This document shows, in pieces, positions 16,916 through 23,901 of a DNA stretch of 24,000 bases. The translations under genes were made by a program, and so were the position numbers. Under the pieces are notes generated by a model. That model ran no database searches. It was given only the letters and a program-made list of their open reading frames with translations, and was not told the origin of the DNA. Numbering within the stretch: position 1 is the stretch's first letter; every line of letters begins with the position of its first letter. The stretch is from Spirochaetia bacterium (GTDB taxonomy: Bacteria > Spirochaetota > Spirochaetia > UBA9216), in NCBI GenBank assembly GCA_963677925.2, contig CAXXYH010000003.1:876621-900620 (forward strand). The letters are read 5' to 3'.

Positions 16916-16948
16916 AGCTGCTTCCGAATTTTCGGAGCAGCTTTTTTA
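16916..16948. terminator. Hairpin plus T-tract between convergent genes; likely bidirectional intrinsic terminator
   Basis: AGCTGCTTCCGAA-TTT-TCGGAGCAGCT followed by TTTTTT. The stem has a single bulge. It lies between the lipoprotein stop at 16890 and the minus-strand gene stop at 16946-16948. Confidence 0.6.
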
Positions 16949-17503
16949 TTCCCTTGATTGCAGCTCATTCCGCAGAGCCTTCATCCTTGCCCGAAACACT
17001 GTATTTTTATAATCAGAAAGATTTGAGCCCAGCACCTCATCAAACAGAAGAACAGCTCTTTTCAGCGGCATGGCATTACGCCTGATGCCTATCAGAAAGT
17101 CGGAAGCTCTATGTTCATCACGTAGTATGAATTGAAGGAGTCCAAGGGCAATTGAAGCGGAACGTGATATTCCCCTCCAGCAGTGCAGTGTAAAGCCTGA
17201 TGCAGATTCATTTTCGTTTTTCACAAAGTTCAGAACCTGCTCAATATCATCACGTTCGATCATCCTTTTATTATTGAAAGAAGCAAGGTTTTCAATATCA
17301 TTTTCATCCCAGAATTCAAGATGAAGAATCGAACTGAAAGCTGATTCAATTTCAGGCGGTGTACTGCAGCGCGGGTCTCCGGGACATGTGCATTCAGGGT
17401 TATTGATCGATATACAGTGGGAATACACAGGTCTCCCCTTTCTCAGATGCTCAACAAGTTCTTCCTGTCCGAATATCTGGATTTTTATAGCATCAGCGGT
17501 CAT
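16946..17503 (-). CDS. Cysteine-phosphatase (PTP/DSP-like, CX5R P-loop) family protein, substrate unknown
   Basis: 185 aa from the ATG at 17503 (MTADAIKIQIFGQ...). LHCWRGISRSAS matches HCX5R(S/T). AAGG lies 6 nt before this ATG, 17 nt after the upstream gene's stop. The longer track ORF (to 17665) would overlap the upstream ARH gene by 145 nt and encodes a Cys/His/Arg-rich, low-complexity N-terminus. Confidence 0.6.
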   Translation of the reverse strand: MTADAIKIQIFGQEELVEHLRKGRPVYSHCISINNPECTCPGDPRCSTPPEIESAFSSILHLEFWDENDIENLASFNNKRMIERDDIEQVLNFVKNENESASGFTLHCWRGISRSASIALGLLQFILRDEHRASDFLIGIRRNAMPLKRAVLLFDEVLGSNLSDYKNTVFRARMKALRNELQSRE

Positions 17504-17520
17504 ACATAGCCTTATGATAT

Positions 17521-18477
17521 TCAGGGATACTGAAAAACACCAAGATTCTCCCTGGCTGCTGTCCATGCGGCAGGGATGTCTTTTCCGAGGCTGTAAAGGC
17601 TGACAATGGATCCTACAATGGCACAGGTGGTGTCCCTGTCTCCCAATCCTGCGACGGTATTCCATAAAGCTTCGGCATAGTCATCATAAAACCTCTCAAC
17701 TATCCAGAGACAGAAGGGCACAGTATCTACAGCAAGGATATTCTGCCCTGTACCGAGAATACCGGCAGCATCGTATGCAGTGGTTGTGCCGGGCAGGTTT
17801 CCGGCCTTCTCCACCTCATCTTTGAGCGTTCCGGCGGCAAGATATCTGATGACATATTCAAAAAGCCCCGGAACTTCATTGCGCCTGGTCTTCTGAACAA
17901 CCCAGGAAGCTGCAAGTGCAACAGCTGCAGCGCCCTCCTGCCCTTCGGAGTGCATATGGGTTACCTGAGCGGAGAGCCTTGCCTCTGCAGCTGCTTTTTC
18001 CGGATTATCCCAGAAATATGCGCCGACCGGACCGACCCTCATTGCAGAACCGTTCCCGCATGAGCCCTGACCGTCAAAAGCTGCGGCGGAGAGGGTTTTC
18101 CAGTCAGAATCGTACATATAGTTGCCAAGCATGGCGTGAATACCTCTTCCGTAGCCTCTGGCCGGATCCTTCCTGTATTGCACAAGAAACTGCTTTGCCA
18201 GAAAGTCCCGGTCGATACGCGTGCGGGAAATCAGTGTTTTTACTATAGATATTCCCATCACAGTATCATCTGTACACTTCCAGGGCGGATCAGGCAGAAT
18301 GCGTGAGTCAATTTTAGGAATAACTTCATCGTGATACCCGAAAAATTGTTCACCGAATGCATCTCCGACAGAAAGCCCCTGCAGGCTGATATCCGCAAGC
18401 TGTACACGTTCTGTTTTATCTTTAATTTCTAGCAATTTGTGACCACCTGAAATCCTTCTTCCTTGCTGGTCTCCCAT
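17521..18477 (-). CDS. ADP-ribosylglycohydrolase (ARH/DraG) family protein, copy 1
   Basis: ARH motif series GLSVGDAFGE, CTDDTVMG, GSCGNGSAMRVGP, THMHSEG and GLGDRDTTCAIVGSI. The ATG at 18477 overlaps the upstream Nudix gene by 49 nt. An alternative TTG at 18435 is preceded by AGGTGG at a 7-nt spacing and overlaps by only 7 nt. Confidence 0.85.
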   Translation of the reverse strand: MGDQQGRRISGGHKLLEIKDKTERVQLADISLQGLSVGDAFGEQFFGYHDEVIPKIDSRILPDPPWKCTDDTVMGISIVKTLISRTRIDRDFLAKQFLVQYRKDPARGYGRGIHAMLGNYMYDSDWKTLSAAAFDGQGSCGNGSAMRVGPVGAYFWDNPEKAAAEARLSAQVTHMHSEGQEGAAAVALAASWVVQKTRRNEVPGLFEYVIRYLAAGTLKDEVEKAGNLPGTTTAYDAAGILGTGQNILAVDTVPFCLWIVERFYDDYAEALWNTVAGLGDRDTTCAIVGSIVSLYSLGKDIPAAWTAARENLGVFQYP

Positions 18478-21809: not shown

Positions 21810-21829
21810 AGCTTATAGTTCTCCTTTCA

Positions 21830-22897
21830 TTATAATTCCTTCATGGCCCTGACAATGGGAAGTTTATCAATATTTTTAAATAACACTTTATCATTCTCCT
21901 CAAGAAGAGCCCACGGGAAAGTTTCATCCTTCATATCAAGAAAATCCTGTTTGACATCTTCACCGCTGCGGGCCCGTATAAAGTAATCAATTAATCTTTC
22001 AATGTAATCATGGTTTTCAATCACTGATAAAAGCCTTTCCGGAATGCTTTCTATTCCCAGATAAGCGCCGCTCAGGGCACAGGCCATGGATGAAATTGTA
22101 TCGGTATCACCGCCTGCGCTGACTGCTTCATAAAGGCAGTCCTCAAAAGAATCCCTGTTCCTTAAGAAGGTAAGAATAGAAAAAGGAAGCGATTCAACTG
22201 CCGTCTCATCCCGAAGAAAGGAGTTCATGCATCCGTCCGAATCAACCCCCTTATTCAATAGTATCCTGTTTTTTTCCAAAGCTTCTCTGAACCCTCCGGT
22301 TGAAGAAACTTTAAGCAGTTCAGCTATAAAATCATCGTTACTGATTTTATCAGCATCTAAAGCAAGCGCTGCAGCCTTTGCCATAATTACAGCTGAATCA
22401 ACGCCCAGCGGATGGATGTGGGTTGTTCGGGCTGATTTTACCGCATTCTTTTTTATAAGCCGGGGTCTGTTGCTGAACCACAGTCCGATTGGAGCAACCC
22501 GCATACAGGCGCCGTTCCCCATAGAACCGCTGCTGTTTTTGTATAAAAGCTCGCTGACAAAGCGGTTCAGCTTCTTTGAGGACACACCCGCTGTATCCTT
22601 TCGGATATTGAAAAGGAAATAGGTACCGGTACCGTATGCCCGATCGAGATTTGCAAGATGATCATACATAAAGATATCGGCCAGCTGCTCAAGTCTGATT
22701 CTTCCATGTATAATAAGCTGCTGACAAACTCCGAAGGTCATCAAAGAATCGTCTGTGTAGCGTATTACCTCGGACTTTTGGAGTTCGGTTTCAATCTCAG
22801 CTTTGTCCCCTGCGCCGAAATTCTCACCGATTGCGTCACCGATGACGGCACCAAAGAGGCATCCTCTGATTTTTTTATTAAGTTCTTTATCAGTCAT
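21830..22897 (-). CDS. ADP-ribosylglycohydrolase (ARH/DraG) family protein, copy 2, with a C-terminal extension
   Basis: GAVIGDAIGE, YTDDSLMT, GSMGNGACMRVAPIG, THIHPLG and SAGGDTDTISSMACALSGAYLG, then about 60 extra C-terminal residues. The ATG overlaps the upstream HDAC-family stop (ATGA). Confidence 0.85.
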   Translation of the reverse strand: MTDKELNKKIRGCLFGAVIGDAIGENFGAGDKAEIETELQKSEVIRYTDDSLMTFGVCQQLIIHGRIRLEQLADIFMYDHLANLDRAYGTGTYFLFNIRKDTAGVSSKKLNRFVSELLYKNSSGSMGNGACMRVAPIGLWFSNRPRLIKKNAVKSARTTHIHPLGVDSAVIMAKAAALALDADKISNDDFIAELLKVSSTGGFREALEKNRILLNKGVDSDGCMNSFLRDETAVESLPFSILTFLRNRDSFEDCLYEAVSAGGDTDTISSMACALSGAYLGIESIPERLLSVIENHDYIERLIDYFIRARSGEDVKQDFLDMKDETFPWALLEENDKVLFKNIDKLPIVRAMKEL

Positions 22898-23901
22898 TTT
22901 ATGCTTCGAAACAGCTCGCTCATATGAGCCGCCGCGGAGTTCACAGTTACATCAAGCTCATATCCGCCTCCGGGCAGGGAAACAACCGGAGCATTGTATT
23001 TATTCGAAACTTCAATGACAGTCCTTGTCATCATAGCAAAATCCTCATACTCAAACTTGGTCACATACTTTCCGCAGTCAAGGGTATGTCCGTCATGTCC
23101 GTCGAAGACAAAGATCATATCCGGTGTGAACGGAAGCGTTTCAAGTTCTAATCGGAACTGTTCCATTACATTCTCAGCCCTGAAGACATCACCCTTCAGC
23201 CCGAGTTCATCATGGAAAAAATCATCGGTATAGTTTTCATCAAGAACCGGAATACTGCAGTGGCCGACAGAAGATGAATATACAGTAGTTCCGAGCTCGA
23301 TTGATTTAACCATACTCATGTACAGGTCGACTGCACTGTGAATATCTATGATGTAAACCGAACTGTCATTCTCAAATATTGTCTGGGTTCCGTCTCCATG
23401 ATGAAAATCCCAGTCAATGATTAGGATATTCCTGAATCCGGATTTCTGCGCATACCGTGCCGCGGCTGCCATGGAATTCAGCAGACAGTAGCCATGCCCC
23501 CTGGATGGAAATGCATGATGACTGGGCTGGGTAAAACAGTATGCCCTATCCAGGACTCCCCTTTTCATCAGATCGACTGCTGAATAAAGACCGCCAAGAC
23601 CGTATTCAAAGCCGGGAAGAGCCAGAGGCAGATTGAAGCATTCCGCACTTATAGTCAGATCAGCCTGTTCATCACCGCCTGCAAAGGCTTTGATTGCATC
23701 AAGATACTCTTTGCCATGAACCGACTTGAACTCATCAAACTCAACCCTGTTCAGAGGCAGTTCAGGTACCCTCAGTTCCTTTCTGATCCCTGCCCGGACC
23801 TTATCATAATAATCAAGCGACTGGCCAATGAATTCAATCTCGTTCATCGGCTTTATTGTCATACAGGTTTCAGGATGGAAATACGTTCCGAAAGTTTTCA
23901 T
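22894..23901 (-). CDS. Zn-dependent deacetylase of the histone deacetylase / acetylpolyamine amidohydrolase family
   Basis: 335 aa. PSHHAFPSRGHGYCLLNS (catalytic HH), IIDWDFHHGDGTQ (D-x-H metal ligands), FDGHDGHTLD and LPGGGYEL (catalytic Tyr). No clear SD. An AT-rich 99 bp stretch lies upstream, up to the window edge. Confidence 0.88.
   Translation of the reverse strand: MKTFGTYFHPETCMTIKPMNEIEFIGQSLDYYDKVRAGIRKELRVPELPLNRVEFDEFKSVHGKEYLDAIKAFAGGDEQADLTISAECFNLPLALPGFEYGLGGLYSAVDLMKRGVLDRAYCFTQPSHHAFPSRGHGYCLLNSMAAAARYAQKSGFRNILIIDWDFHHGDGTQTIFENDSSVYIIDIHSAVDLYMSMVKSIELGTTVYSSSVGHCSIPVLDENYTDDFFHDELGLKGDVFRAENVMEQFRLELETLPFTPDMIFVFDGHDGHTLDCGKYVTKFEYEDFAMMTRTVIEVSNKYNAPVVSLPGGGYELDVTVNSAAAHMSELFRSIK

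Follow-up and report, generated by a model that had tools for sequence, protein, structure and literature searches.

A putative NrtR-autoregulated operon joining a tandem-GGDEF diguanylate cyclase and an ADP-ribosylglycohydrolase in a Spirochaetia bacterium

We analysed a 24,000-nucleotide (nt) stretch of DNA from a Spirochaetia bacterium (GenBank assembly GCA_963677925.2, contig CAXXYH010000003.1, positions 876,621 to 900,620), called the window below, in which seven minus-strand genes lie tightly packed. An earlier note on this DNA, made from the letters alone, had proposed that all seven form one undescribed signalling system tying ADP-ribose and nicotinamide adenine dinucleotide (NAD) to cyclic di-GMP (c-di-GMP). 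Our results point to two side-by-side units, the second of which, led by a tandem-GGDEF diguanylate cyclase and followed by an NrtR-family regulator, an ADP-ribosylglycohydrolase (ARH1) and a phosphatase, appears to be an operon under the control of its own regulator. The domains and motifs, the order of the genes and their conservation, the operator motif and a deletion in a sister genome were all computed directly. An open reading frame (ORF) check of the window found 7 of the 7 minus-strand ORFs between 16946 and 23901; a Pfam profile search bore out the domains that the earlier note had read in them, and profile and structure annotation confirmed each family assignment. The features of the locus are, in order along the minus strand:

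22894-23901, minus strand: HDAC-family (class II-like) zinc deacetylase, 335 amino acids (aa); PF00850, E = 4.8e-44.
21830-22897, minus strand: ARH2, ARH3-like ADP-ribosylglycohydrolase, 355 aa; PF03747, E = 2.5e-46.
20718-21809, minus strand: DUF1152 protein, 363 aa; PF06626, E = 3.8e-13.
20671-20699, minus strand: predicted promoter-like site TTGAAA-17-TAAACT; consensus scan, 9/12 matches, kept in the sister genome.
20648-20664, no strand: candidate NrtR operator, perfect palindrome AGTGT-N7-ACACT; pattern scan and cross-lineage recurrence.
19108-20607, minus strand: tandem-GGDEF diguanylate cyclase (GGDEF2x), 499 aa; GGDEF in two stretches, E = 2.3e-74.
18429-19121, minus strand: NrtR-family regulator, 230 aa, Nudix plus winged helix-turn-helix; NrtR_WHD and NUDIX Pfam models.
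17521-18435, minus strand: ARH1, ARH3-like ADP-ribosylglycohydrolase, 304 aa; PF03747, E = 2.9e-49.
16946-17503, minus strand: cysteine-dependent dual-specificity-type phosphatase with an HCX5RS loop, 185 aa; fold and P-loop.
16917-16941, no strand: hairpin between convergent genes, GCTGCTCCGAAAATTCGGAAGCAGC; T-run on the plus strand.

From the HDAC gene to the phosphatase gene, the junctions are a 4-nt ATGA overlap (the ARH2 gene overlapping the HDAC stop codon), a 20-nt gap, a 110-nt gap, a 14-nt overlap, a 7-nt overlap and a 17-nt gap, all as previously described. The last three lengths assume that NrtR starts at 19121, ARH1 at the TTG at 18435 and the phosphatase at 17503. These starts are better supported than those of the longer ORF spans (18429-19220, 17521-18477 and 16946-17665, respectively): the 230-aa NrtR protein aligns with its orthologues from residue 1, the TTG of ARH1 has an AGGTGG ribosome-binding site and yields the length of a 304-aa database protein, and the 185-aa phosphatase is the form found in the databases.

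The 110-nt gap holds both the promoter-like site and the palindrome, and two transcription units are therefore suggested, an upstream Unit A (20718-23901) and a downstream Unit B beginning with the cyclase gene; a scan of the gap found no terminator. The palindrome follows the -10-like hexamer after 6 nt and is itself followed, 40 nt later, by the cyclase start codon. It is the single exact match to AGTGT-N7-ACACT in the window, where 0.35 matches with at most one mismatch would be expected by chance. The same box is present in the closest genome available, a Spirochaetia metagenome-assembled genome (MAG; OZ223269.1, L009) that is syntenic with window positions 9439-24000 at about 91-94% DNA identity. 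In a more distant lineage (L042), the orthologous cyclase gene has two GTGT-N7-ACAC boxes in tandem ahead of it, and in another (L051) the box TTTAGTGTACAATTTACACTATA sits 3 nt before pncB. The boxes thus precede the first gene of the operon in the window, L009, L042 and L051, in intergenic regions that are otherwise unalignable, and in the 791 kb of DNA retrieved, GTGT-N7-ACAC occurred at a background of 0.018 per kb. According to Rodionov et al. 2008 (PMC2330246), NrtR operators are mostly palindromes of 21 bp with a GT-N7-AC core, a core that the window palindrome fits. We conclude that AGTGT-N7-ACACT is a candidate operator of this NrtR clade and that it would govern the cyclase-first unit. 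No NrtR box was found upstream of the HDAC gene (in the window or in L009), of serS-pncB or of the other window genes. Two further copies lie inside coding regions and are probably due to chance: a GTGT-N7-ACAC copy within the cyclase gene (19851-19865, also in L009) and a one-mismatch copy within ARH1 (18262-18278).

At the other end of the unit, the earlier note had read a hairpin as the terminator of the cluster. The hairpin itself is real, and its T-run lies on the plus strand: the scan lists a plus-strand terminator at 16922-16937, followed by TTTTTT, and there is no T-tail on the minus strand. Judged by this asymmetry, the hairpin would primarily serve as the terminator of a plus-strand lipoprotein gene; bidirectional use is also listed for it.

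The first gene of Unit B encodes a protein with an N-terminal domain of about 115 aa followed by two full-length GGDEF domains with active-site motifs (PF00990, E = 2.3e-74; TIGR00254, 268 bits). The motifs read GGDEF and GGEEM, and an RxxD I-site is present only in domain 2. The window, L009, L042 and a further locus, L046, all share GG(D/E)EF without variation in both domains, and likewise the I-site of domain 2. The N-terminal domain had no Pfam match even at E = 5 and was not similar to the cREC_REC domain that is fused to the ADP-ribosylglycohydrolase of L051. Pfam found no ADP-ribose-sensing domain in the cyclase, and the coupling of the proposed circuit to c-di-GMP is most likely transcriptional. 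The cyclase gene is 98.7% identical in DNA between the window and L009 (L009 11203-12702), with a synonymous divergence (dS) of 0.047, against 0.22-0.56 in neighbouring genes; this looks like a recent recombination tract across this one gene.

A test of gene-neighbourhood conservation gave a divided answer for the seven genes: the order GGDEF2x-NrtR-ARH1 recurs, while the homologues of DUF1152, HDAC and the phosphatase lie in unrelated contexts. The best ARH1 homologue with long contigs (P0138; L042-L045), read on at least 24 contigs, lies in an operon that contains a tandem-GGDEF gene (52% identity over 493 aa), an NrtR gene (68%) and ARH1 (51%) in the same order as in the window. This operon goes on into a NadR-type nicotinamide mononucleotide (NMN) adenylyltransferase, PnuC (above its NCBIfam cutoff) and a fusion of an ADP-ribosylglycohydrolase to a MavL-type domain (L042 8599-10530), with junctions of 1-9 nt or overlapping genes. 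The GC content of the L042 organism is 57%, compared with 45% in the window, and the flanks differ; that the order is kept despite these differences argues for selection. A second arrangement was found in L051 (P0239), which reads pncB, nadE, NrtR (53% identity), a cREC_REC/ARH1 fusion (46%), a small ORF, pncA, a Nudix gene and another ADP-ribosylglycohydrolase gene. The fusion protein, encoded at L051 6001-7329, carries an N-terminal cREC_REC (“cyclic-phosphate processing receiver”) domain (E = 1.8e-8), and the same fusion recurs in several database proteins (P0217, P0239, P0251). In L046, an ARH1 homologue lies 2 kb from a divergently transcribed full-length tandem-GGDEF homologue (36% identity), with a Crp-type regulator and no NrtR, and in L047 and L048 the ARH1 homologue is likewise without NrtR. 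Since the NrtR/ARH1 core appears to drive NAD salvage genes elsewhere (nadR-pnuC in one lineage, pncB-nadE-pncA in the other), it defines what may be called an NAD-turnover and ADP-ribose-recycling regulon. The module is best seen as such a regulon, to which the spirochaete version adds a lineage-specific c-di-GMP output.

The regulator combines a winged-helix domain (PF21906, NrtR_WHD, E = 1.7e-23) with a Nudix domain (PF00293, E = 3e-21), the two-domain architecture of the NrtR family. It scored 160.9 bits against the NCBIfam NrtR equivalog NF050029, below the cutoff of 400, and by its sequence it is a member of the NrtR family broadly, not of the curated equivalog. Among solved structures, the closest relatives are BtAraR (E = 4.6e-50 over 207 residues) and SoNrtR (E = 8.4e-28 over 185 residues). 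This ranking, together with the abundance of GGDEF genes (one more at 40-1242 of the window, others near the ARH1 homologues of L046 and L047), raises the alternative that the protein is an AraR-like sensor of a pentose or ribose derivative, that the cluster is an ordinary juxtaposition with no ADP-ribose logic, and that the cyclase is simply one of many GGDEF genes. Several results make this improbable. The NrtR winged-helix model scored better on the regulator than the AraR model did (1.7e-23 versus 2.7e-10, Pfam). Window residues R32, R84, R87 and H130 align with ligand-contacting positions; R87 corresponds to Arg98 of SoNrtR, which contacts ADP-ribose and is Gly89 in AraR, and R32, at the Arg41/Arg34 position, aligns with Arg41 of SoNrtR, which likewise contacts ADP-ribose. 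The retention of Arg87 and R32 therefore favours a nucleotide-sugar ligand. Orthologous regulators sit in the nadR-pnuC and pncB-nadE-pncA operons behind the same operator, and the cyclase is no arbitrary GGDEF gene: two lineages have it at this place, as orthologues over the full length. We regard the AraR-like reading as unlikely, and continue with an NrtR-type regulator.

The Nudix box of the regulator, GX5EX7REUXEEXGU, is complete in the window protein and in all four clade members compared. Its counterparts in the characterised NrtR and AraR proteins are impaired. Given the complete box, the regulator may hydrolyse its own effector, and the suggestion that the sensor may also degrade its ligand fits both the full Nudix box and the arginine at the ADP-ribose-contacting position of SoNrtR.

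ARH1 belongs to a tight family, met next to NrtR in three lineages (more than 4900 matches at E <= 1e-10, with about 50% identity across phyla, including homologues in Myxococcota, Polyangiaceae among the matches named), whose invariant motifs are GDAFGE, TDDT, GNG and GDRDTT. Its best solved match is ARH3 (E = 3e-20), as it is for ARH2 (human ARH3, E = 6.8e-26, in an alignment that pairs the TDD and GGDTDT motifs); the two window proteins are only 26% identical to each other. A single-query metagenome scan with ARH2 returned one locus, at 32% identity, with none of the other six families. Both carry TDD, GNG and GD(T/R)DT, and the Asp/Thr motifs that match the di-metal residues of ARH3 (Asp77/Asp78 and Asp314/Asp316/Thr317) are present and invariant in ARH1 and ARH2. 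The position aligned with Glu41 is Gly in ARH2 (in the PDB entry shown, Glu41 is itself mutated to Ala), and both proteins have an invariant Glu three residues before the Glu41 position (GDAxGE). Thus, of the claim that the catalytic motifs of all the enzymes are intact, the part concerning the HDAC, ARH Asp/Thr, Nudix, cyclase and phosphatase motifs stands, but the ARH3 Glu41 equivalent is shifted in both ADP-ribosylglycohydrolases.

The last gene of Unit B encodes a protein whose match to the Pfam DSPc model fell below threshold (E = 3.9e-4, 20.7 bits versus a cutoff of 33.5). Its AlphaFold model (pLDDT 87.4) matched 89 dual-specificity phosphatase structures at E <= 1e-3 in Foldseek, with a target-normalised TM-score of up to 0.72. 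The P-loop HCWRGISRS and an FWD motif were invariant in eight phosphatase homologues, which supplies both an HCX5R(S/T) loop and an upstream general-acid Asp. Judged by its modelled fold and its P-loop, the protein is a divergent dual-specificity member of the protein tyrosine phosphatase superfamily. We considered whether this phosphatase family is generally linked to ADP-ribosylglycohydrolases and rejected the idea: homologues with 62%, 57% and 46% identity lie in three unrelated contexts, none with an ARH or NrtR neighbour. One pair of loci (L006 10001-11177 and L007 2756-3932) encodes two tandem CX5R phosphatase paralogues (57% and 38% identity) with toxin-antitoxin pairs, a gene for a Fic protein and a PycTM gene around them, a setting resembling a defence island.

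The sister genome L009 keeps the HDAC, ARH2, DUF1152, tandem-GGDEF and NrtR genes, with ratios of nonsynonymous to synonymous divergence (dN/dS) of 0.07-0.14, compared with 0.02-0.05 for housekeeping neighbours; the five retained genes are therefore taken to be functional. Window positions 17509-18432, exactly ARH1, are missing from L009, which leaves 7 nt between the NrtR stop codon and the phosphatase start. The phosphatase gene itself has decayed to a pseudogene, having lost 251 nt internally (window 17104-17354) and acquired frameshifts. The deletions map to L009 13377-13540, and the two distal operon genes were lost together. L009 also served for reading the region beyond the window end. 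Upstream of the HDAC gene it encodes a C39-like peptidase, a hybrid-cluster protein, a GNAT protein, a Crp-type regulator and a GAF-HD protein. Genes for a transferase, a sirtuin or a TIR protein were not found in these 7.8 kb, and Pfam scans of the window proteins found no ADP-ribosyltransferase (ART), SIR2 or TIR gene, which upholds the earlier statement that the window holds no writer of ADP-ribosylation and, by way of the sister genome, extends it past nt 24000.

Unit A resembles Unit B in strand and packing, and we asked how far its three products can be tied to the regulator and the cyclase. The HDAC protein contains a full-length arginase-deacetylase fold domain (PF00850 over residues 45-329), and its translation shows the HH dyad, DxH, D and GGGY elements (motifs SHH, DWDFHHGDG, FDGHDGH and GGGY), which provide the Asp-His-Asp zinc ligands and the GGGY tyrosine of the HDAC superfamily. 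Its closest solved relatives are HDAC6, HDAC10 and bacterial HDAH, and its dN/dS relative to the sister genome is 0.12. The DUF1152 protein has conserved acidic and Gly-rich motifs (GCGGGFDF, SYSFG, YAYYAR, DGGSDS, GDxxED and GxGxDR). Its AlphaFold model (pLDDT 85.8) had no PDB match at E <= 1e-3 in Foldseek, where only weak SurE and MshB-like matches were seen, and we consider it probably an enzyme with a Rossmann-like alpha/beta fold. A profile search recovered 1210 cluster representatives and no informative domain fusion (one STAS fusion only), suggesting a widespread stand-alone enzyme family; a literature search found no paper mentioning DUF1152.

If all seven genes made up one ADP-ribose/NAD signalling system, the NrtR-cyclase pair would receive ADP-ribose, or a deacetylated precursor, from the HDAC, ARH2 and DUF1152 proteins. 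The common strand, the tight packing and the lack of a terminator in the 110-nt gap agree with this, as does the retention of five genes in L009 under purifying selection. There is also a second ADP-ribosylglycohydrolase at each NrtR/ARH1 locus, a deacetylase near the L042 operon and a precedent in Mycobacterium, where NrtR activity depends on lysine acetylation (PMC6800001). The L042 deacetylase is a CobB-like SIR2 protein (L042 1200-2048) on the same strand, 1.7 kb upstream, and the HDAC-type deacetylase of the window stands in the corresponding position; that either enzyme acts on NrtR acetylation is speculation by analogy. The linkage data speak against a seven-gene system. In 34 other DUF1152 loci (42-56% identity; drawn from a Salinispira MAG, Planctomycetota, Myxococcota, Chloroflexota, Thiomargarita and others), no ARH, HDAC, GGDEF or NrtR homologue was found in flanks of up to 10 kb, and clustering of the neighbours found nothing conserved beyond four Polyangium genomes. 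The HDAC orthologue in L005 (66% identity) has no adjoining ARH gene. No NrtR box precedes the HDAC gene in the window or in L009, the nearly identical L009 genome does without ARH1 and a functional phosphatase gene, the second ADP-ribosylglycohydrolases of the three lineages are not orthologous (24-27% identity), and the L042 SIR2 gene is parted from its operon by two opposite-strand genes. The claim of one conserved seven-gene unit thus fails: ARH1 and the phosphatase are lost in a genome that is about 93% identical, and DUF1152, HDAC and the phosphatase are unlinked elsewhere. We give a seven-gene system little credence. Unit A is probably a neighbouring gene set with its own promoter; its three genes are kept by purifying selection, they have at most a putative functional tie to Unit B, and present evidence does not justify listing HDAC, ARH2 and DUF1152 as components of the NrtR-cyclase system in annotations. 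What stands of the proposed ADP-ribose/c-di-GMP circuit is the link between NrtR, ARH and cyclase through conserved order and operator.

Some neighbours of the Unit A homologues deserve mention. In L005, a same-strand run at 2591-9920 encodes a metallophosphatase, the HDAC orthologue, an M48 peptidase, an Rce1-like protein, a kinase-like protein, a phosphatase paralogue (28%) and a second metallophosphatase, followed by an unassigned 226-aa gene, a GDSL lipase gene (minus strand) and the CX5R phosphatase orthologue (62%). A GDSL gene with 52% identity to this one also flanks the GGDEF2x-NrtR-ARH1 operon of L042, a hint of an older arrangement that the two loci once shared. Rce1-like genes (PF02517, CPBP-type protease) adjoin DUF1152, HDAC and ARH1 homologues in unrelated contigs:

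L001/L002, 9069-11857: Rce1-like.
L005, 5196-6017: Rce1-like.
L048, 1821-2543: Rce1-like.

Taken together, we think it reasonably probable that the cluster consists of two side-by-side units and that GGDEF2x-NrtR-ARH1-phosphatase (16946-20607, with the control region at 20648-20699) is an NrtR-autoregulated operon. A number of findings weigh against this reading. Read-through from Unit A is possible, the gap having no terminator, and the promoter match is weak (9/12). By overall sequence, arabinose-responsive BtAraR is a nearer relative of the regulator than ADP-ribose-responsive SoNrtR, so that ADP-ribose is only a candidate effector, and the canonical Glu41-equivalent position is not clearly conserved in either ADP-ribosylglycohydrolase. 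The cyclase-NrtR pair persists in L009 without ARH1, the proposed producer of ADP-ribose. The full cyclase-NrtR-ARH1 triad was found in only two independent lineages, L046 having no NrtR and L047 and L048 ARH1 alone. Finally, the operon has no NAD-biosynthesis gene: an NAD-gene regulon is seen for the orthologues in L042 (nadR-like, pnuC) and L051 (pncB, nadE, pncA), not in the window, where the nearby pncB gene is without an AGTGT-N7-ACACT box, whereas the L051 NrtR orthologue sits behind a box-controlled pncB. The window pncB gene (nicotinate phosphoribosyltransferase, 11826-13265, plus strand) belongs to a serS-pncB-neuB run 5 kb from nrtR.

From the computed features we infer an effector, repression, enzyme activities and a c-di-GMP outcome as follows. 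An NrtR dimer would bind AGTGT-N7-ACACT directly downstream of the promoter and hold the operon off. ADP-ribose or a close derivative, arising from NAD-consuming reactions and from ARH1 cleavage of ADP-ribosylated substrates or O-acetyl-ADP-ribose, would displace NrtR, and the cyclase, NrtR, ARH1 and the phosphatase would then be produced together. With two competent-looking GGDEF domains in one chain, the cyclase could form its own catalytic pair and be governed mainly by its abundance and by product inhibition at the I-site; derepression would therefore raise c-di-GMP. NrtR might reset the switch by hydrolysing its own effector through its Nudix activity, and the phosphatase may process a phosphorylated product; between them, these two activities would remove the signal. 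In its fullest form, in which a catalytically intact NrtR clade converts ADP-ribose into c-di-GMP by derepressing a self-pairing cyclase and its own Nudix activity acts as a timer, the proposal is tentative and we would not yet bet on it.

A literature search found no report of an NrtR-controlled diguanylate cyclase, only unrelated Pseudomonas reviews, and the cyclase appears to be new as an NrtR-regulated output. The usual view is that c-di-GMP networks answer external signals or signals from the envelope, perceived by sensor domains that the cyclases carry, and that NrtR regulons are housekeeping control of NAD supply. If the proposal is true, NAD consumption or ADP-ribosylation stress, possibly phage attack, shifts lifestyle signalling, and the operon represents a direct, previously undescribed pathway from NAD turnover to c-di-GMP.

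Phage attack is central to another reading of the three distal genes. Iyer et al. 2022 (PMC9503650, section 3.8) predicted a system composed of an ADP-ribosylglycohydrolase (ARG), a Nudix/WYL regulator and a phosphatase of the rhodanese-phosphatase superfamily, without a transferase. Such ARG-centric systems are predicted there to counter viral ADP-ribosylation; module loss is a hallmark, and accessory chaperones (vWA, SseB, TY-Chap), a nuclease, Macro, NADAR and ARPP are frequent, not obligatory. The statement that the combination is not a described system accordingly needs dividing: the grouping of ARH, Nudix-HTH regulator and phosphatase had already been predicted in that paper, and the cyclase is absent from it, with no mention of GGDEF or c-di-GMP. 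Under this reading, NrtR-ARH1-phosphatase would be a normally silent conflict operon, induced by ADP-ribose, that strips from host proteins the ADP-ribose added by phage transferases, with the cyclase as an added effector or alarm. The window matches the template in its ARG, its Nudix-HTH regulator, its tightly coupled phosphatase and the absence of a transferase or sirtuin from the operon: the NrtR gene runs 7 nt past the ARH1 start, and the HCX5RS protein is encoded 17 nt downstream of ARH1. The loss of modules between closely related genomes is a hallmark named in PMC9503650, and the dN/dS values are somewhat above those of the housekeeping neighbours. The surroundings tell against it. PADLOC defence models gave no match of note in the window, no window protein has an accessory chaperone, nuclease, Macro, NADAR or ARPP Pfam domain, the same NrtR/ARH1 pair occurs inside plain NAD salvage operons (L042 and L051), and the homologues of the phosphatase examined elsewhere lie in contexts without an ARG gene. 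Otherwise the window carries common chromosomal genes (hexokinase, a LacI-family regulator, fumarase, aroK, aroC, serS, pncB, neuB and proS), and the setting is housekeeping, not a defence island. We rate a conflict system as rather doubtful and prefer the NrtR-autoregulated operon described above.

Three other genes of the window may be noted: a GGDEF-EAL protein at 40-1242 (plus strand), cut by the window start; a eukaryote-type hexokinase at 1258-2532 (minus strand); and a low-molecular-weight phosphotyrosine phosphatase at 8228-8668 (plus strand).

Compared with known systems, the putative operon shares with the NrtR family (PMC2330246; SoNrtR, 3gz5) the Nudix plus winged helix-turn-helix architecture, a GT-N7-AC palindrome at its own operon promoter and the ADP-ribose-contacting Arg residues, and the loci of its orthologues hold pncB, nadE, pncA, nadR and pnuC. 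It differs from known NrtR operons in starting with a tandem-GGDEF cyclase and lacking an NAD-biosynthesis gene. Its regulator is closer in sequence to BtAraR and has a complete Nudix signature, unlike the impaired signatures of the characterised NrtR and AraR proteins. With PleD-type, I-site GGDEF cyclases the window protein has in common the GG(D/E)EF motifs and an RxxD motif, five residues upstream of GGEE in domain 2; in contrast to them, it pairs two apparently catalytic GGDEF domains in one chain and has no REC, PAS, GAF or other recognisable sensor, so that its control is proposed to be transcriptional. Human ARH3 (ADPRHL2), the best solved relative of ARH1 and ARH2, shares their TDD and GD-x-D-T motifs, but the identity is only about 25-30% and the Glu41 equivalent of the window proteins is off the canonical position.

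The ARG-centric systems of PMC9503650 have the same three-part core in tight linkage, with ARG matched at the family level (PF03747); as in the window operon, they lack a linked transferase or sirtuin and lose modules between closely related genomes. Here, by contrast, there is no chaperone, nuclease, Macro or NADAR partner, a diguanylate cyclase is included, the setting is one of housekeeping and NAD salvage genes instead of a defence island, and spirochaetes are not among the lineages listed for those systems. A last comparison concerns c-di-GMP itself, which binds NadR and induces NAD synthesis (mBio 2025, PMC12421817). That system likewise links the c-di-GMP network with regulators of NAD homeostasis, but in the opposite direction: in the operon proposed here, a sensor of NAD turnover would control the synthesis of c-di-GMP.

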